Shown one piece after another: positions 15,448-53,632 of a DNA stretch of 64,000 nucleotides. A program made the position numbers and the translations under genes. Under the pieces are notes generated by a model. The model had not been told where the DNA came from and made no database searches. It saw nothing but the letters and a program-made list of their open reading frames with translations. The DNA is from Elusimicrobia bacterium CG_4_9_14_3_um_filter_62_55. Its GTDB lineage: Bacteria; Elusimicrobiota; Elusimicrobia; UBA1565. Position 1 is the stretch's first letter; each line of letters starts with the position of its first letter. The stretch spans positions 9,510 to 73,509 of the forward strand of contig PFUL01000054.1 in NCBI GenBank assembly GCA_002790095.1, in the 5' to 3' direction.

Positions 15448-15466
15448 TCGACTGAAAGCGGAAAAA

Positions 15467-15495
15467 CCCCGGGGCGCACGCGCCCCGGGGTTTTT
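15467..15495 (+). terminator. rho-independent terminator (CCCCGGGGCG-CACG-CGCCCCGGGG + T5)
   Basis: 10-bp perfect GC stem, 4-nt loop, TTTTT. 20 nt after the metalloprotease stop. Confidence 0.65.
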
Positions 15496-15572
15496 CCATT
15501 CCGGCTCGATGTGGTAGAATCACTCAGCGACGAAATTAAATCCGTAAAGAATTCCTTCCCCTTCGGAGCCTC

Positions 15573-28540: not shown

Positions 28541-29011
28541 TTAGAAAAGCGGCTCGATCCCGACGCGGCGCAGGGCGCGTCGACAGTACGCAAGCGCTTG
28601 GGGACCTTCCGAACACGCCCGAAGCGGAATCACCGGCGCGCATTCCAAGGACGGCTCTCCCTCGCAAAGGGAGTACAGCCCCCCGGGTTCTTCCTCGATT
28701 CGGTTGTGCGGCGCGAGGATCGCGCGGATCGTCGCAAGAATTCCGGGTGTTGGAACGGGGACCAACAGCGCAGTGAGCGCGCCATGATCGGAATGAAGCC
28801 TATCCAGGATTTTTCCGACCGAGGGAGCGGACAGCCGCACCTTCGGCATCAGGTCGTGCTCCTCGACCCACATATGCCGCAACAGGCCGGCCCGAAATTC
28901 GTCGTATAGGGGACCGGGGGCGAGGCCGGCCGCCTCGACGCGAGCGAGGATCGCGTCGAGGCGGCGATGATCGTCTTCCATCGCGCGTGAGACCGGCCCG
29001 GAGTCGTCCAT
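28541..29011 (-). CDS. hemerythrin-like (HHE cation-binding) domain protein
   Basis: H..LD...H..EE pattern (DHRRLDAIL, HMWVEEHDLMP, HSDHGAL). ATGA overlap with the upstream hemerythrin gene. Confidence 0.55.
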   Translation of the reverse strand: MDDSGPVSRAMEDDHRRLDAILARVEAAGLAPGPLYDEFRAGLLRHMWVEEHDLMPKVRLSAPSVGKILDRLHSDHGALTALLVPVPTPGILATIRAILAPHNRIEEEPGGLYSLCEGEPSLECAPVIPLRACSEGPQALAYCRRALRRVGIEPLF

Positions 29012-29589: not shown

Positions 29590-30243
29590 TTATGCGGCTT
29601 CGCAGAGGGCCTGCAGCGCGGCGGCATCAAGTACCGAGACCCGCTTCCACCCGGACGCGATCCATTCCTTCTTGCGGAAGTCCACAAGGGTTCGAATGGC
29701 GGTCTCGGTGGTGCAGCCGGCGAGTTCGGCGATTTCCTCGCGGCGGATCGGAATCTCGCCGCCGATCGAATTCGAAAGCGTCAGCAGCACCCGCGCGACG
29801 CGAACCTCCACGGGCTCCCCCGCCAGCGAGCGCAGCGTCTGCGCCTGACGCAGATGGTCGCCGATCGAGGCGTAGACCACCTTCGAGAATTCGGGGAAAT
29901 CCGTCATCAGAGACGCGAACAACGCCGCCGGAATGCGGTACGCCTCGCAGTCCTGCAGCGGGAGAGCGCTGACCGGGTAGGGCTTCTTGTCCATCACCGC
30001 GATCATCCCGAACAATTGCCCGGGGGCGATGATCTCCATCGACGCGGCTTCCATGCGCGGAGAATACTTGACCGCCTTGACCAGGCCCGATTTCAGCACG
30101 AAGACCGCGTTCGCCGGATCGCCCTCTTGGAACACGGGTTCGTTTTTACCGTATCCCTTCGCATGCACCGAGCGAGACAGTCCTTCCAGCGTCTCTTGAG
30201 GGAGGCGCTTGAACGCCGGCAAACGCGCAAGGAAGAAATCCAT
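29590..30243 (-). CDS. Crp/Fnr-family transcriptional regulator (Dnr/NnrR-like candidate)
   Basis: cNMP-binding beta-roll plus C-terminal HTH (EIAELAGCTTETAIRTLVDFRKKEWI). Start at Met 30243 gives a TGATG overlap with the upstream gene stop. Sits between NO-reductase/hemerythrin genes. Confidence 0.8.
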   Translation of the reverse strand: MDFFLARLPAFKRLPQETLEGLSRSVHAKGYGKNEPVFQEGDPANAVFVLKSGLVKAVKYSPRMEAASMEIIAPGQLFGMIAVMDKKPYPVSALPLQDCEAYRIPAALFASLMTDFPEFSKVVYASIGDHLRQAQTLRSLAGEPVEVRVARVLLTLSNSIGGEIPIRREEIAELAGCTTETAIRTLVDFRKKEWIASGWKRVSVLDAAALQALCEAA

Positions 30244-43539: not shown

Positions 43540-44640
43540 TTAAGTGCGTTTATAAAAAGGGCCTTCAACGACCTCGGCGGCGACCGCGCGCCCGTGCAAA
43601 GTCACGCTCAAGGGCGTCCCCGCCGGGAGTTCGGGACGGTTCAAATAGCCGACGCCGATGCCGGCCTGCAGCGTCGGAGAAAAGGTTGCGCTCGCCAGCG
43701 TACCGATCTTCTCGCCTTCAAAAACGACCTCGGACCCCGAGCGCGGTACACCGCGTTCCAAGAGCTTCAACGGGGTGAGACGACGCCGGATTCCTTCGGT
43801 CTTCTGCTTCTCGAGCGCCGCCTTGCCGATAAACTCGCCCTTCTTGAGCTTGACCACCCATCCGTATCCCGCCTCGTACGGCGTATGTTCTCCGTCGATG
43901 TCGGAACCATAAAGCAGGTAGCCCGCCTCCAATCGGAGGGTATCCCGAGCGCCGAGTCCGCAGGGAAGGAGCCCGAACGACGCGCCGCGCGCCTGAAGCG
44001 TCTGCCAAGCGCGGGTCGCGAGTTCCCGGGCGCAGATCACTTCGAATCCGTCTTCCCCCGTATAGCCGGTGCGCGTGATCCAGGCGCTTCGGCCGAAAAG
44101 TTCGAGCTTCATCGCGCCGAAACGGGGCAAAGCGACGGCATCGGTTGAGAGGGCTTCCATGATCTTCTCAGAGAGGGGACCTTGCAGCGCGATCATGCCA
44201 AGCGCCTCGCTGCGGTCTTCGACGGCGACGTCGAACCCTTCGGCCGCGCGGCGAATCCAGGCCGCGTCGCCTTCACGCGTTGCGGCGTTGACGACGACCA
44301 GGTAGCGGTTTTCCGCAAGCCGCGAGACGATGACGTCGTCGACCACGCCCCCGTTCTCGTTGAGCATGTGCGAATACAAACCGCGGCCGTCCTGGAGCCG
44401 CGAAATGTCGTTGGAATTAACGCGCTGCAGAAGCGCAAGCGCTCCCGGGCCCTCCACGAATACCTGCCCCATGTGGCTGACGTCGAACAGGCCCGCGGCG
44501 CTGCGCACGGCGCGGTGTTCGGTGATAATGCTGGAGAATTGAACCGGAAGCTCCCAGCCGTGAAAGGACACCATACGCCCCCCGAGCTCGGTATGCAGGG
44601 CGTGGAGCGAGGTCCTTTGAAGTGATTCTATGGTGGTCAT
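43540..44640 (-). CDS. gcvT: glycine cleavage system T protein (aminomethyltransferase)
   Basis: TPLHALHTELGGRMV-type N-terminus, GLFDVSHMG, YTGEDGFE. Start at Met 44640 (MTTIESL). Confidence 0.9.
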   Translation of the reverse strand: MTTIESLQRTSLHALHTELGGRMVSFHGWELPVQFSSIITEHRAVRSAAGLFDVSHMGQVFVEGPGALALLQRVNSNDISRLQDGRGLYSHMLNENGGVVDDVIVSRLAENRYLVVVNAATREGDAAWIRRAAEGFDVAVEDRSEALGMIALQGPLSEKIMEALSTDAVALPRFGAMKLELFGRSAWITRTGYTGEDGFEVICARELATRAWQTLQARGASFGLLPCGLGARDTLRLEAGYLLYGSDIDGEHTPYEAGYGWVVKLKKGEFIGKAALEKQKTEGIRRRLTPLKLLERGVPRSGSEVVFEGEKIGTLASATFSPTLQAGIGVGYLNRPELPAGTPLSVTLHGRAVAAEVVEGPFYKRT

Positions 44641-44714
44641 ACGCGTTATAGCGATACCATACAACAAACGACGGTTTCCCGTACATCCTATTGTAATACA
44701 CGGGAGGCATCCTT

Positions 44715-45455
44715 ATGATTAGGACGACGATGCGCTATTGGACCCTTTCCCCGGAAGGAAGCGTCTCGGGCCCGTTCGATCCAAGCCAAATCGCAGGGAT
44801 CGACGGCTTCGGCGCCGAAACCCGCGTCTGCCCCGAACGCTTCTATGGAAGCGGGGATCACGCCTGGCTGCGCGCCGGATTCATCTCGGAATTGCGGGCG
44901 ATGCTGCCGCCGGCCGAGCGCCTGCTCCCCCCCGATCCTTCCCAAGCTGAGGTCCGTCTGCTCGGCTCCCTGGAAGAACGGGTGGCGGAACTTGAAGAAC
45001 TGCTTCTGGACTCTTTGGATCGTTTGCGCGAACGCGGACGCGCAGTGAAGGCGCTCGAAGCCGAAAACCTGGAACGGGGAAAAGACGTCCTGCGGCTTCG
45101 GACCGCTCTGAAAAAAATCTCTCTGCGGGTCGGAGCGCTCGGAAGTCTCGAGGCCAAGCTCCTCAAAATGAGCGCGCTGCTCGATACCCGAGAAGAGATT
45201 ATCGGCGCGGTGCGGCAAACCTTCGAAGCGGGCTTAGAAACCGCCGCACGCACGGCCGCGGAAACGGCGGCGGAAGCCCATCAGGTGATCCGCGAGGCGG
45301 AGCGCATCGCCGAGGCGGCCGTCGCCCACGCGGAGAAGGCCGAGGGAAGGGCGAAGCTTGCTCCGGTTCGTAAGGAGCGGCGAGGGAAGCGGCGGCGGAA
45401 GAGACGAAGAACGGAGAAATCGAGGGAGGATTTGTTCGAACCTCCCGCCGGTTGA
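44715..45455 (+). CDS. DUF4339 (GYF-like) domain protein with coiled-coil and poly-Arg/Lys C-terminus
   Basis: N-terminus RYWTLSPEGSVSGPFDPSQI...HAWLRAGFISEL resembles DUF4339. Central heptad region, C-terminal KERRGKRRRKRRRTEKS. Confidence 0.5.
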   Translation: MIRTTMRYWTLSPEGSVSGPFDPSQIAGIDGFGAETRVCPERFYGSGDHAWLRAGFISELRAMLPPAERLLPPDPSQAEVRLLGSLEERVAELEELLLDSLDRLRERGRAVKALEAENLERGKDVLRLRTALKKISLRVGALGSLEAKLLKMSALLDTREEIIGAVRQTFEAGLETAARTAAETAAEAHQVIREAERIAEAAVAHAEKAEGRAKLAPVRKERRGKRRRKRRRTEKSREDLFEPPAG

Positions 45456-45663
45456 CTCCCCGCTCCATGTTCCTGTAGTTTTAACGACGGCTTGCCCCAA
45501 CGGCGCGGACGCCCCGTGGGGGCGTCCGTCATCGGCGCGCAAGCGCGCCGAGGGGAAATTCGAGAGTTACCCTCGGCGGAAAGGATTGCACGCCCTGAGG
45601 CGCCAGACGACGCGCTCCCGCACATCACGCGCGTGCATGCCGCAACGGAAATTTCAATCGGGA

Positions 45664-45687
45664 GCAACTGTCCCCGGGGACAGTTGC
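45664..45687. repeat. 24-bp perfect palindrome GCAACTGTCCCCGGGGACAGTTGC (copy 1)
   Basis: Read directly. Shares the 20-nt core AACTGTCCCCGGGGACAGTT with the copy at 46903-46926. Lies 130 nt downstream of the HNH gene stop. Confidence 0.75.
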
Positions 45688-45818
45688 CGGCTCGTTCGAG
45701 CATCGCGTGCGAAGCGCGAAATCAGACGCCGTTGATCAGGTAAAACTACGAAACATGGTGGATCCCCGCCCTTGCAGCCAACGACGGAATGCGCCATTGC
45801 CGAGTTTGCGCAGGCCCG

Positions 45819-46868
45819 CTATTGAGGCTCACGCCGCCGCCTGGCGCGATCCCCGAAGCGCCTAATGGCCGCTCCCTGGTTGTGCGCACGACACAACAGC
45901 CGGATGTTCTCGACGGCATCGGAACGGCCGCCTACCGCCCAAGGGACGATGTGATCGAATTCCAATCCGCCGCGGGCCGAGCAGCGCTGTCCCGACTTGG
46001 AAACAAACGAGCAACGGCCATCGTCCCGCTTCCAAACCGCGCTCCGTACGGATTGCGGAACGCGACGCGAGTGATCCGAGAGGCCCGCGCGCGGCTTGCG
46101 GGCAAAAGTTTCCTTGCGCCGATCCGGATCCTTCCGTTCGAGATAGAACTCTGCCGCCGCATCGATAACGTCCTCCAATTTTCCCGCAGGATGTTTGTGG
46201 CGAAGAAGCTCCTTCAGCCGTTGGATTTTCACCCTCAACGGTTCGCCGCCGGTGAAGCCAAAGTGAACCCGCTCCGGCGAGATCGGCCGGATGGAGTCCG
46301 TTTCGATCCGCGTTGGCGAAACCATGATCGGCGGATGCGGCACGCGGGCGTCCGGCTCGCTTGAGCGTTCGTTTTCCGGCGAAGAGTCGGAAGCCGCAGG
46401 CGACTCACCCGGCTGACTCTCAGGGAGCGGAATGCGCTGAATGTGATCTCGCAGATCCGGCCGAGGCGACAGCGACGCGGCCAGATGTTCCAGTTCCCGT
46501 TTTGATTTTCCCTCGGCCTCCGAAAGCATGTCGCCATAATTATCGGCGGTCAGATGCGGCCGAAGGATCACGAGCGCGGTCAGGTGTATCCTTCCGTTCG
46601 CAAGCGCTTCCAGCAGCGCAGGAAATTCAGCCGCGGCCCGGGCCGCTTGGATGCGCTTGTACGCGGAACCCTCGGAATATCCGAGTTTCTTAGTGCAGAA
46701 TTCGAACAGTGATGAGTAACCTTCATCCTCATGAAGCCTGCGTTGGCTGATTTCGATTAGATGCGCGATCGATAAGGCGGCAAAGCCGCGTTCGCATCGA
46801 ACCGCTCTCTCAAGCCCGTCCATCAGATCTGCATCGGTTAATCGGCGGCAGGCCTCGATCAACTTCAT
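45819..46868 (-). CDS. DUF222 + HNH endonuclease (13E12-repeat-type HNH protein)
   Basis: N-terminal DUF222-like helical region. C-terminal HNH: CSFVSKSGQRCSARGGLEFDHIVPWAVGGRSDAVENIRLLCRAHN (Cx2C...H...N, CxxH). Confidence 0.85.
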   Translation of the reverse strand: MKLIEACRRLTDADLMDGLERAVRCERGFAALSIAHLIEISQRRLHEDEGYSSLFEFCTKKLGYSEGSAYKRIQAARAAAEFPALLEALANGRIHLTALVILRPHLTADNYGDMLSEAEGKSKRELEHLAASLSPRPDLRDHIQRIPLPESQPGESPAASDSSPENERSSEPDARVPHPPIMVSPTRIETDSIRPISPERVHFGFTGGEPLRVKIQRLKELLRHKHPAGKLEDVIDAAAEFYLERKDPDRRKETFARKPRAGLSDHSRRVPQSVRSAVWKRDDGRCSFVSKSGQRCSARGGLEFDHIVPWAVGGRSDAVENIRLLCRAHNQGAAIRRFGDRARRRREPQ

Positions 46869-46902
46869 GCCCTCATGTACGAACGAGGATCAAAATAGTT
46901 CC

Positions 46903-46926
46903 CGAACTGTCCCCGGGGACAGTTCG
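46903..46926. repeat. 24-bp perfect palindrome CGAACTGTCCCCGGGGACAGTTCG (copy 2)
   Basis: Read directly. 35 nt upstream of the HNH gene start. Same 20-nt core as copy 1. Confidence 0.75.
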
Positions 46927-47050
46927 ATTGGGAAAAAACAGCGCCGGCCCGGGAGGGCCGCTTCCGTTTCTCTTTTCGTTCGAGCTCGGAGATTTGCGAA
47001 GCAAATCTTCGAGCCACGCGCCCGAAGCGCGTAAATTTCGCCGTTAGCCG

Positions 47051-47383
47051 CTACCGATCGTCGGGCAATTCGGAGGCTACGACCCGCCGCACCGCGCGGC
47101 CGACGGCCACGCGTTGTTCGGTGCGGCGGAAGGAGACTCCGGCGACCGTGTAACCGTCTTCGTCGAGCGAGGGATCGCTTATGAGCGCTTCGACGCCGGA
47201 AAACGGATCGCCGAACACGTCGAAATCGAGCAATAGCAGCCCCCCGACGGGAATGGGCGCCCGAAGAATCAGGCGCGCACCGTCGGGATTCAACGAAAGC
47301 AGACGTCCCCAGGTTTCCGCGCGGGACGGATCATCGGCGAAGCGCACGAGCACCGGCACGAAGCGCGAGGCGTCGACTCTCAC
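47051..47383 (-). CDS. PilZ-like domain protein (tentative)
   Basis: 110 aa. RxxxR-like N-terminus (MRVDASRFVPVLVRF) and a downstream D/GG-containing beta segment resemble PilZ, but the motif match is loose. 4-nt overlap with the upstream gene. Confidence 0.35.
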   Translation of the reverse strand: MRVDASRFVPVLVRFADDPSRAETWGRLLSLNPDGARLILRAPIPVGGLLLLDFDVFGDPFSGVEALISDPSLDEDGYTVAGVSFRRTEQRVAVGRAVRRVVASELPDDR

Positions 47384-48567
47384 GGCGTGAGGATCGCGCG
47401 CAAATGTTCCGGCGGAATCTCGTGAATAAACACGCGGCCGAGGCCCTCGCCGCGGGGAAGTTCCTCGGCGGTGCTCACGAAACGGGAACCGTCGAACGCG
47501 AGTCCGGTGGGCTTCCAGCGTCCGCCGCGGTACGCGTCGAGCGGCAGGCGCATCGTCACCCGATTGGGATTTTTAAAGTCATGGCGCAGCAGTTCCCGGT
47601 TCGTCCAATCGAGCGACCACAAAGCGCGGCCGTCGAAGGTGAGGGCGGTCGGTACGCCGCCCGGATACGGATAGCTTTCGATCACCGACAAACCTTCGTC
47701 CGGAATCCGTTTGTGAATCTTCTTTGTCTTCGTATCGACGGACCACAGATAGAGGCCGTCGTACGCAAGTCCGACGGTCTGCGGCGCGGCATCGCGCGAC
47801 CACGAAAGAACGCTCAGGCGATCATCGAGCAAATGCTTGACGATTCCGCGAGGCGCGGCGGCCGCATACAGCGCGTCGCCCGCGTAGGCGAGCGCCCCGG
47901 GCACCTCTTGAGGGAGATAGCGCGTGCGCAGAACCGCGAAGGTGTTCGGGTCGTGACGGTGAATCGTCTGGGAAAACCAGTCGCTGATCCAGTACCGCTT
48001 TCCGTCATAGGCCAAGCCGGCGGGATGCGCGTACGGCAGCGCGAATTCGGATGGAGGGACAGGGACCTCGGATTCCCGGGCGAGACGCCGGTGTCTCTCG
48101 AGCGCGCCCCAACCTGCGGCCATCGCCACGAGCAGCAGGCCCAGCGCGGCATACGCTCCGACTCCGATCTTCTTCTCGATGGGACGCGAGGCTTCGAACG
48201 CGGTTCCCTTAAAGCGCAGGGCCTTGGAAACGGTCGCGGCCATGTGCTCCGCGGTCCACGGCGGAGCGACGACCTCGTAGGCGCCCGCTTTCAACAGGTC
48301 CAACGCTCGCGCGGCCTTGCGCTCGGTCATCGCGACGATCACGGGAAGCAGCGGAGCCTCCCGTTCGAGTTCGGCAAGAGCCGATTCGGCGACGGTTTCG
48401 GAAGGCGCCTGAGCGACGATCATCAAGCGCGGACGCTGGCGGGAAACAATCTCCATCGCCCCGGAAAGATCCTTCGCCGCCGCGACCAAGTGCCCGAGTT
48501 CCTCGAGCGCAAGCTTCAACGTGAGGCGCTGCTCCTCATCTTTGGCGACGACGGCGAGAACGGCCAT
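47380..48567 (-). CDS. pseudo-receiver domain + TM + beta-propeller (hWhxD repeats) protein
   Basis: N-terminal REC-like fold lacking the phospho-Asp (LMIVAQAPS). TM helix (GVGAYAALGLLLVAMAAGW). Blades RYWISDW, LYLWSVD, ALWSLDW, the same blade motif as in 24799..26121. Confidence 0.6.
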   Translation of the reverse strand: MAVLAVVAKDEEQRLTLKLALEELGHLVAAAKDLSGAMEIVSRQRPRLMIVAQAPSETVAESALAELEREAPLLPVIVAMTERKAARALDLLKAGAYEVVAPPWTAEHMAATVSKALRFKGTAFEASRPIEKKIGVGAYAALGLLLVAMAAGWGALERHRRLARESEVPVPPSEFALPYAHPAGLAYDGKRYWISDWFSQTIHRHDPNTFAVLRTRYLPQEVPGALAYAGDALYAAAAPRGIVKHLLDDRLSVLSWSRDAAPQTVGLAYDGLYLWSVDTKTKKIHKRIPDEGLSVIESYPYPGGVPTALTFDGRALWSLDWTNRELLRHDFKNPNRVTMRLPLDAYRGGRWKPTGLAFDGSRFVSTAEELPRGEGLGRVFIHEIPPEHLRAILTP

Positions 48568-53545: not shown

Positions 53546-53570
53546 GAGGTCGGTCTGGGTATATTTCCAA

Positions 53571-53605
53571 GGGCCAGGCACCCCGCGGCGCGCGGTGCCT
53601 GGCCC
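53571..53605 (+). terminator. GC-rich hairpin (GGGCCAGGCACC-N11-GGTGCCTGGCCC), possible terminator of fdxA
   Basis: 12-bp stem read directly. Weak T tract (TCTTAGTT), so intrinsic termination is uncertain. Confidence 0.4.
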
Positions 53606-53632
53606 TCTTAGTTCCGCGGCGATGGACACGTC

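Follow-up and report, generated by a model that had tools for sequence, protein, structure and literature searches.

In the 64,000-nt stretch of contig PFUL01000054.1 of Elusimicrobia bacterium CG_4_9_14_3_um_filter_62_55 analysed here (hereafter the window), a gene for an HNH nuclease lies between two perfect 24-bp palindromes (Table 1). This locus is one case of a wider pattern, in which each lineage of the HNH family pairs with a perfect palindrome of its own, located at the promoter, at the gene ends or in frame within the gene, an association that is apparently undescribed. The palindromes are most likely sites recognised by the nuclease's own DNA-binding domain, and we lean towards a model in which they are the cognate binding sites of the enzyme, the promoter-proximal copy would be an autoregulatory operator, and gene and palindromes together would form a horizontally mobile selfish cassette. 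The observations behind this model are the association of palindromes with the gene family, their positions, the boundaries of homology between loci, the presence or absence of the gene and the similarity of the protein fold to known DNA-binding domains.

Perfect palindromes accompany the HNH gene

The two window palindromes share the 20-nt core AACTGTCCCCGGGGACAGTT, as had been noted in an earlier reading made from the letters alone (the sequence-only reading), and enclose a single open reading frame (ORF), that of the HNH gene. Searches of the 64 kb return these two matches only, even when 3 mismatches are allowed, and none in 100 shuffled sequences, in agreement with the claim that the core does not occur elsewhere in the window. 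The HNH gene is likewise single-copy within the window. The same bracketed layout is present in two independent Joint Genome Institute (JGI) metagenome assemblies (L108 and L109; loci used for comparison carry L numbers), and an assembly artefact is therefore ruled out for the window.

For the family as a whole, an unbiased sample was obtained by picking HNH homologues from metagenome contigs by protein patterns only, with palindromes disregarded, and a perfect palindrome was defined by a stem of at least 9 and a loop of at most 2. The exact or near-exact window palindrome is rare in this sample, and about 20 of the 37 loci carry other perfect palindromes of the same design, in which the arms are ACT...AGT, the inner stem varies and the centre is frequently CCGG or CCCCGGGG. 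Palindrome density amounts to 0.43/kb in the gene plus 200 nt on either side and to 0.08/kb elsewhere in the same 44 loci, an approximately 5-fold enrichment (Poisson P = 3.5e-12). A bracket occurs in eight independent loci, namely the window, L119, L122/L123, L126, L150, L102, L202 and L203, the last two of which were found among close homologues fetched after the unbiased sample. Within a locus the bracketing pair has the same core (near-identical in L202), and between loci the core differs, as exemplified by AACTCTTGTCGACAAGAGTT in L119, AACTCTTCCCGGGAAGAGTT in L122/L123 and AACTGTCGCCGGCGACAGTT in L203. An unpaired centre is absent in 23 of 28 palindromes, a feature that suits a dimer on double-stranded DNA better than it suits the loop of a hairpin. 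The type of palindrome tracks the phylogeny of the N-terminal domain of the protein.

In the Eisenbacteria-type homologues, which are 33-38% identical to the window protein, the palindrome is found inside the gene and the ORF reads through it. All exact in-gene copies (19 of 19) stand in the same frame and encode (Q/E)LSPGTV, and by alignment the in-frame palindrome maps to the hypervariable linker 3' of the N-terminal domain. Diverged in-frame palindromes occupy the same linker position, mostly in the same frame, and are translated into L....V peptides (LSPGTV, LSSRTV, LSTRTV, LSLRTV, LAPAQV, LDPDPV, LAPGRV, LAPGQV and LPLGAV). L102 contains a second linker motif, QLSSRTV, which corresponds to the variant ACTGTCCTCGAGGACAGT, with both arms altered together. 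Since the linker palindrome changes in symmetric pairs, it is the dyad in the DNA, not the peptide, that seems to be constrained.

Architecture of the HNH protein

The window protein matches Pfam HNH (PF01844) with 29.5 bits against a cut-off of 21.4 (E = 8.6e-7), as do 24 of 29 relatives, and it has the beta-beta-alpha-metal fold with the catalytic His, the Asn/His and the Cys/His zinc ligands. The sequence-only reading had labelled the gene as DUF222-HNH of the 13E12 type. The HNH half of this label stands, whereas DUF222 (PF02720) scores 17.6 bits, below the gathering score of 24.4, and reaches E <= 0.01 in 5 of 29 relatives (best 1.9e-5). The HNH family is probably a distant relative of DUF222. 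The Pfam scan of the window protein returned HNH, HNH_5 and the sub-threshold DUF222 match only, and no transposase family of the kind expected for an insertion sequence or a miniature inverted-repeat transposable element (MITE). PADLOC, PHROGs and NCBIfam gave generic matches to the HNH core only, and a full-length homologue was not found in the plasmid collection. The family is large, with 10,270 clusters at 50% identity at E <= 1e-30.

The AlphaFold model, built with 120 homologues, has a mean predicted local distance difference test score (pLDDT) of 87, with residues 1-146 of the N-terminal domain above 95. By two methods, the fold of this domain matches the DNA-binding domains of ParB, KorB, Spo0J, Noc and SopB, and the top-ranked Foldseek matches, obtained independently, are ParB, Spo0J-parS and Noc, of high probability but with weak E-values. 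As modelled, the N-terminal domain resembles a ParB/KorB-type helix-turn-helix (HTH) fold. At the sequence level, similarity to ParB-type proteins is undetectable, and the sole PDB sequence match covers the HNH part. The N-terminal CTPase domain of ParB (ParB/Srx) is not seen either, as there is no Pfam ParB match and the model shows only the helical domain, the linker and the HNH part. The literature search found no paper linking DUF222-HNH genes to palindromes or to ParB-like HTH domains.

A promoter-like motif beside the palindrome

The motif GGAAC-N16-CGTA, whose -35-like element is touched by palindrome 2, has a form that we take to be that of an extracytoplasmic function (ECF) sigma promoter, going by ECF consensus sequences. 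A GGAAC-N16/17-CGT(A/G) motif (consensus GGAACTTTTTCGGGGGGTCGATCGTAT) is found within 150 nt 5' of the start in 29 of 89 homologue entries, which include many duplicates of one locus and come to about 20 distinct loci, where the background rate is 0.0033 per 150 nt. L200, L201 and L203 have the motif as well. A sigma-70 promoter scan of the region gave no match. GGAAC-N-CGTA has a further match at 30129, within ORFs, which was taken as chance.

In the window and in other lineages, the palindromes take positions around this motif that would suit an operator. In the subclade of the window, 0-24 nt separate the upstream palindrome from the -35 located 3' of it. This distance is 0-5 nt in the window, L197, L198 and L200, which involve three different palindromes, one of them 52 nt long, and 17-24 nt in L201, L203, L126 and L152. 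The palindrome overlaps the -10 in L134 and lies 26-38 nt downstream in L079, L119 and L117. In L197, which at 61% identity is the nearest homologue for which DNA is available, the core of the window palindrome recurs 37 nt 5' of the start, and in L122 the order of elements matches that of the window, i.e., terminator, palindrome, gene, palindrome.

The promoter-like motif also bears on the statement in the sequence-only reading that no T-run follows either palindrome. This holds for copy 1, which has no T-run on either strand and does not qualify as an intrinsic terminator. At copy 2, the minus-strand tail GAACTATTTT is called terminator-like by a lenient scan only, and the stretch is better explained by the promoter motif. 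That reading had missed this conserved promoter, the in-gene palindromes of other clades and the ParB/KorB-like domain.

The ECF-sigma-like motif is kept upstream of HNH homologues across lineages (upstream regions of L115-L203), which is odd for a horizontally moving gene, and its conservation hints at stress-linked expression. In L200 (GCA_023249735.1, 2405-4680), two tandem HNH paralogues (P0004 and P0029) are located behind the 52-nt perfect palindrome, which abuts GGAAC-N17-CGTG.

Mobility and homology boundaries

Sequence comparison indicates that the cassette has evidently been mobile over evolutionary time. In L195, from a related organism (a neighbour protein is 65% identical), gcvH, gcvT and the genes for proteins of 259, 110 and 395 amino acids stand in the same order with the HNH gene absent, and the convergent 259-aa and 110-aa genes abut with overlapping stop codons. 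No palindrome is present in L195 with up to 4 mismatches, and because this empty site has none, insertion would have taken place without visible use of a pre-existing site. Palindromes that persist where the gene is absent, which the sequence-only reading had named as an observation that would speak against its proposal, are thus not seen in L195, which lacks both.

The HNH gene is also polymorphic in presence, as expected of a homing gene, being absent from L195 and reduced to a remnant in L148, which keeps only the C-terminal third where L110 has the whole gene and thus represents a decaying copy; the flanks of L110 and L148 are syntenic, with a uvrA-like gene and a succinate-dehydrogenase flavoprotein gene. 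The other hallmark of homing, an empty allele with an intact site that is disrupted by the insertion, is not observed: the distant L195 has no palindrome, and in the window both flanking sites are intact. In loci with orthologous flanks, the HNH gene is more diverged than its neighbours (77% versus 89.6%), and its neighbours vary from locus to locus. In L197, which has a different context, similarity to the window starts at the outer edge of the upstream palindrome, and between L121 and L122 (72% nucleotide identity, different contexts) it ends exactly at the end of the 3' palindrome. The earlier suggestion of a small mobile cassette with the palindromes as its ends is therefore supported by these boundaries and by L195, which has neither gene nor palindromes, but not by the size of the segment missing in L195, which is larger than the bracket.

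No target-site duplication was seen at the approximate junctions. The outer flanks of the bracket were considered as terminal inverted repeats and rejected, their similarity being no better than that of shuffles, and the paralogue pair L043/L096 was uninformative about the cassette ends, as its similarity runs into the neighbouring gene. Next to the cassette, the 246-aa gene (44715-45455) stops 8-13 codons before its homologues in L195 and L196 (which end ...PPSGPDPFSL*), and a remnant of its old 3' end seems to persist at 45461-45478, past the new stop.

Copies of the palindrome in other genomes

A genome scan with one genome per species and the 18-mer core ACTGTCCCCGGGGACAGT as query returned at least 107 loci, mostly in Candidatus Eisenbacteria and some in Elusimicrobiota and Acidobacteriota. 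Among the matches listed, an HNH homologue is located in the same 8-kb block at 26 of 107 loci, or at 24 of 72 when the amplified metagenome-assembled genome (MAG) JANLWK01 is left out; clustering of the ORFs within 1.5 kb of a palindrome shows that the HNH family alone recurs strongly; and the Elusimicrobiota MAG JBIOJO01 has 6 copies, most assemblies having 1-5. The sequence-only reading had regarded hundreds of unrelated intergenic sites as what would speak against its proposal. The number of loci goes part of the way in that direction, but the 26 loci with an HNH homologue do not fit it.

The palindrome has been amplified in the Eisenbacteria MAG JANLWK01, which contains at least 38 copies. 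These form mosaics with other palindromes that resemble bacterial interspersed mosaic elements (BIMEs) and are mostly intergenic by a crude codon-periodicity test, and HNH homologues adjoin 2 of 35 loci. A one-sided conserved flank, TTCGTTCGATCGCGCTGAAC, is present on 35 of 116 copies scanned, mostly in JANLWK01. Because there are amplified, flank-bearing, mosaic and mostly intergenic copies, the palindrome is akin to repetitive extragenic palindromic (REP) elements in some genomes. The proposal in the sequence-only reading that the palindromes are REP-like thus applies to some genomes and not to this window: the window palindromes are not generic repeats, and the copies elsewhere are not independent of the HNH gene.

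A repeat of about 40 nt, here called the flank repeat, lies to the right of each window palindrome (local alignment score 32 against 16.5 +/- 2.4 in shuffled sequences; equalled in 0 of 300 shuffles), and its part CGCGAT..CGAACGA matches the flank of the Eisenbacteria repeat unit. The string TCGTTCGWDC has all three of its window matches at 45692, 46877 and 46976. The flank repeat contains small hairpins, in which TCGCG...CGCGA against ACGCG...CGCGT amounts to a compensatory change.

Several other settings of the 18-mer were noted. Low-GC singletons (Peribacteria, Gracilibacteria and Syntrophomonadaceae) resemble ordinary intrinsic terminators, with runs of A and T. Since these singletons may be chance hairpins, the occurrence of the exact 18-mer across phyla was dropped as evidence of transfer. 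Perfect palindromes of up to 78 nt are centred on the 18-mer in L089 (3837-3916), L054, L058 and L094, some at contig ends; the very long ones at contig ends (e.g., L089) are possible assembly fold-backs and were excluded from the evidence. In JANLWK01 contigs (L011, L057, L065 and others), palindrome families ACCTGCCCCGGGGCAGGT and GAGGTGTCTGCGCAGACACCTC are interleaved with the ACTGTCC type in the BIME-like mosaics, and in Acidobacteriota MAGs (L034, L035, L042, L068 and L075) the 18-mer occurs within arrays of GGGGACAGTCAC and GGGGACACTCAACC units, with no HNH homologue in the block. In the IMG/VR contigs L113 (2000-2120) and L114 (4440-4560), the 18-mer is surrounded by iterated ACTGTCC/GGACAGT half-sites, reminiscent of iterons or operators; these two viral matches represent one phage intergenic region, in which an HNH homologue is absent.

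Proposed mechanism and alternative explanations

In the model that we favour, the protein would be a modular site-specific nuclease with an N-terminal ParB/KorB-type HTH domain, a long disordered linker and an HNH catalytic domain. The HTH domain would bind its dyad-symmetric site as a dimer. Copy 2, on the -35 of the gene's own ECF-sigma-like promoter, would be an operator through which the nuclease sets its own synthesis, and copy 1, accompanied by the flank repeat, would provide another site at the 3' edge. The cassette, made up of promoter, gene and palindromes, would be a stand-alone unit of ~1.3-1.6 kb that has been inserted between housekeeping genes and moves horizontally. We infer that the N-terminal domain binds the palindrome, that this binding represses the promoter and that cuts or nicks are made by the HNH domain at other such sites or close to them. 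The sequence-only reading had listed recognition by the HNH enzyme among its options, and the family-wide association and the predicted ParB/KorB-like fold indirectly point to it.

Several observations weigh against this model. Its binding, repression and cleavage steps are all inferred, and the fold match to ParB/KorB-type domains is moderate. A perfect palindrome is missing from the vicinity of about 40% of the sampled homologues and from that of L110, at 51% identity. The partial Mantel r is 0.23 for the putative recognition helix and for the rest of the N-terminal domain alike, and covariation with palindrome sequence specific to the helix was rejected on account of the same weak signal in the rest of the domain. 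The segment missing from L195 extends beyond the bracket, by 185 nt to its left and by 124 nt to its right. Solo copies in amplified genomes have no promoter motif, and an operator role alone leaves the 3' copies, the in-frame copies and the at least 38 mostly intergenic copies of JANLWK01 unexplained.

Alternatively, the HNH enzyme would cut or nick the palindrome and thereby spread palindromes, itself or both by break repair or gene conversion, either as a homing enzyme or in a manner akin to REP elements and their REP-associated tyrosine transposases (RAYTs). As the main function this is possible, although we think it doubtful. It overlaps with the model that we favour because both need cognate recognition, and it is in the main function that they differ. 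The bracket would then be the mode of entry of the cassette, and solo copies would be products or targets of the enzyme, details that we regard as just as tentative. Besides the amplified copies of JANLWK01, with their TTCGTTCGATCGCGCTGAAC flank and mosaics, and the 6 copies in one Elusimicrobiota MAG among the matches listed, it is favoured by window copy 1 bearing the same flank motif as the Eisenbacteria copies, by a nuclease gene flanked by its own palindromes as RAYT genes are by REPs, and by cassette homology that ends at the palindromes. Moreover, the REP13E12 (DUF222-HNH) loci are among the strongest gene-conversion hotspots in Mycobacterium tuberculosis (PMC13061034). However, the empty site in L195 has no palindrome, there is neither a target-site duplication or other junction signature nor inverted repetition of the outer flanks, most scanned genomes have one or few copies (among the matches listed), and HNH homologues are beside only 2 of 35 loci in the very MAG in which the palindrome is amplified. 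We also know of no HNH enzyme that transposes DNA.

Hairpins that terminate, stabilise or insulate the HNH transcript at the RNA level, with no specific protein recognition, could account for the strong folding of both copies (-18.3 kcal/mol for copy 1 and -19.5 kcal/mol for copy 2), for 3' copies that often abut the stop codon (L121, L122 and L203) and for the terminator-like low-GC singletons with their A and T runs. This is improbable. The self-complementary centre seen in 23 of 28 palindromes is not needed for a hairpin; copy 2, where it is located 5' of the -35, falls outside the transcript; no U-run follows copy 1; and cores that agree within a locus and differ between loci, as well as the retained in-frame linker copies, would be left unexplained. 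Mere coincidence, i.e., generic host palindromes of REP or terminator type beside an unrelated HNH gene, is very improbable; many of the at least 107 loci of the 18-mer have no nearby HNH gene and some are in unrelated phyla, where chance hairpins are plausible, yet the sole two copies in 64 kb flank the gene, the unbiased sample shows a 5-fold enrichment, the bracket recurs in 8 lineages with lineage-specific palindromes, the frame inside genes is constant and homology boundaries fall at palindromes. Least credible of all is a restriction-like or defence nuclease that recognises the palindrome while host copies are somehow protected. HNH type II enzymes do recognise palindromes as dimers, and the HNH part has weak PADLOC REase_II and McrA-like matches, but these span the generic HNH core only, no methyltransferase or other defence gene is near the window HNH gene, its neighbours (gcvT, gcvH, lplA and a response-regulator operon) vary between loci, and a site of 18-24 bp is far too rare for phage restriction.

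Relation to known systems

Among the closest known systems is I-TevI of phage T4 (and probably I-TevII and I-TevIII), a modular homing endonuclease that represses its own promoter via an operator resembling its homing site, this operator copy of the recognition sequence being bound rather than efficiently cut (PMC2988022). As in I-TevI, the window system has a nuclease with a catalytic domain, a long linker and a DNA-binding domain, and a recognition-like site at its own promoter, here judged from sequence. In contrast, I-TevI is an intron-encoded GIY-YIG enzyme that acts as a monomer on an asymmetric site, whereas the window gene is a free-standing chromosomal gene for a protein with a C-terminal HNH domain, and its sites are perfect palindromes with extra copies at the 3' end or in the gene.

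The likeness to the REP/RAYT system resides in a single nuclease-type gene flanked by its own palindromes, in lineage-specific pairs and in amplified intergenic mosaics in some genomes. RAYTs (TnpA-REP) are relatives of HUH/Y1 transposases and have single-stranded hairpins as substrates, REPs are only imperfectly palindromic and have a conserved GTAG-type head, and RAYT genes are reportedly flanked by REPs. The HNH family differs in its HTH-HNH enzyme and in palindromes that are perfect through the centre, in some cases in frame, and few in most genomes. An HUH/Y1 transposase (IS200/IS605 TnpA-like) is not what accompanies the palindrome, as the HNH family is the sole strong recurrent neighbour among the matches listed.

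With ParB-parS, KorB-OB and Noc-NBS, the common trait is the predicted fold of the N-terminal domain. ParB-family HTH domains bind palindromic sites of 13-16 bp or longer as dimers, KorB represses from proximal or distal operators, and some parS sites are inside the parB/spo0J gene. Unlike these proteins, the window protein has no predicted CTPase domain and no partition partner, and its HTH is fused to a nuclease.

REP13E12 has to our knowledge been assigned no function since 1999. These DUF222-HNH genes of Mycobacterium are similar in their helical N-terminal domain, C-terminal HNH domain and repeated or selfish-looking occurrence, but the window protein is below the DUF222 cut-off, and in the literature searched no palindrome association of REP13E12 was found. 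Palindromic units tolerated in frame in coding sequence are also a property of Rickettsia palindromic elements (RPEs), which reportedly occur in frame in protein genes. Whereas RPEs are spread by insertion over many unrelated genes, the palindrome of the HNH family is confined to one position in one gene family and in one frame, with which it co-diverges.

HNH genes with a DUF222-like N-terminal domain are abundant in genomes and metagenomes, and the palindrome pairing, the ParB/KorB-like fold and the promoter together give a concrete and cheaply testable model consisting of a defined protein, a 24-bp site and a promoter. If binding and cleavage are confirmed, the family would be a source of numerous natural nucleases specific for long palindromes (18-30 bp). 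It would then also add a second type of enzyme, next to RAYTs, through which palindromic repeat families can arise, and would exemplify a DNA site that is conserved within the reading frame of the very gene whose protein reads it. More speculatively, and against our own expectation, the HTH-HNH family could be a new class of selfish element, REP/RAYT-like but driven by an HNH enzyme. Each lineage would have a private perfect palindrome, recognised by the ParB/KorB-like domain, with which the nuclease would both throttle its own expression and attack other copies by nicking or cutting; this would seed gene conversion, spread of the cassette and, in some genomes, REP-like amplification, and the in-frame linker site would couple site and enzyme.

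Other features of the locus

Table 1. Features of the HNH locus in the window (positions within the 64,000-nt stretch)
Feature	Position	Strand	Remarks
Palindrome copy 1	45664-45687		GCAACTGTCCCCGGGGACAGTTGC; perfect, 24 bp; 131 nt 3' of the HNH stop codon
Palindrome copy 2	46903-46926		CGAACTGTCCCCGGGGACAGTTCG; perfect, 24 bp; 34 nt 5' of the HNH start; touches the -35-like GGAAC
HNH nuclease gene	45819..46868	-	349 aa; predicted ParB/KorB-like helical HTH domain, disordered linker, helical segment, HNH domain
N-terminal domain, residues 1-146	46431..46868	-	putative recognition helix SEGSAYKRIQAARAA, residues 65-79 (46632-46676)
Disordered linker, residues 147-199	46272..46430	-	pLDDT ~50; site of the in-frame palindrome in other clades
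HNH catalytic core, residues 268-340	45849..46067	-	conserved D305-H306, N321, H329-N330, Cys286/296/326
Promoter-like motif GGAAC-N16-CGTA	46878..46902	-	ECF-sigma type; 9 nt 5' of the ATG; directly after palindrome 2
Segment absent from L195	45479..47050 (approximate)		~1.6 kb
Flank repeat, copy 1	45692..45733	+	TCGTTCGAGCATCGCGTGCGAAGCGCGAAATC...CGCCGTT; just inside palindrome 1
Flank repeat, two diverged tandem copies	46976..47045	+	outside palindrome 2, past the terminator
Intrinsic terminator of the upstream 395-aa/110-aa operon	46933..46972	-	hairpin + UGUUUUUU; just before palindrome 2; terminator scan, -22.2 kcal/mol
Two further hairpins	45505..45549		GCGGACGCCCCGTGGGGGCGTCCG (45505-45528) and GGCGCGCAAGCGCGCC; 3' of the convergent 246-aa gene

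On one side the HNH gene is flanked by gcvT, gcvH and lplA, and on the other by the response-regulator operon. One of the neighbouring proteins is 100% identical to a protein of Elusimicrobia bacterium CG1_02_63_36. The stretch 45456-45818, which the sequence-only reading had described as apparently non-coding, indeed contains no long ORF with a family match, and the hairpin that it had reported near 45508-45526 is present as the first of the two further hairpins of Table 1. These two hairpins are probably the terminator region of the 246-aa gene and need not belong to the cassette, and a search for homologues of them elsewhere found none. Rfam covariance models over 44500-47500 gave only two chance-level microRNA matches (E 0.5-0.8).

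Other long inverted repeats in the window are located at 15460-15497, 53570-53606 and 28929-28965. The perfect inverted repeat GGAAAAACCCCGGGGCGC / GCGCCCCGGGGTTTTTCC (18+18 nt) resembles a bidirectional terminator.

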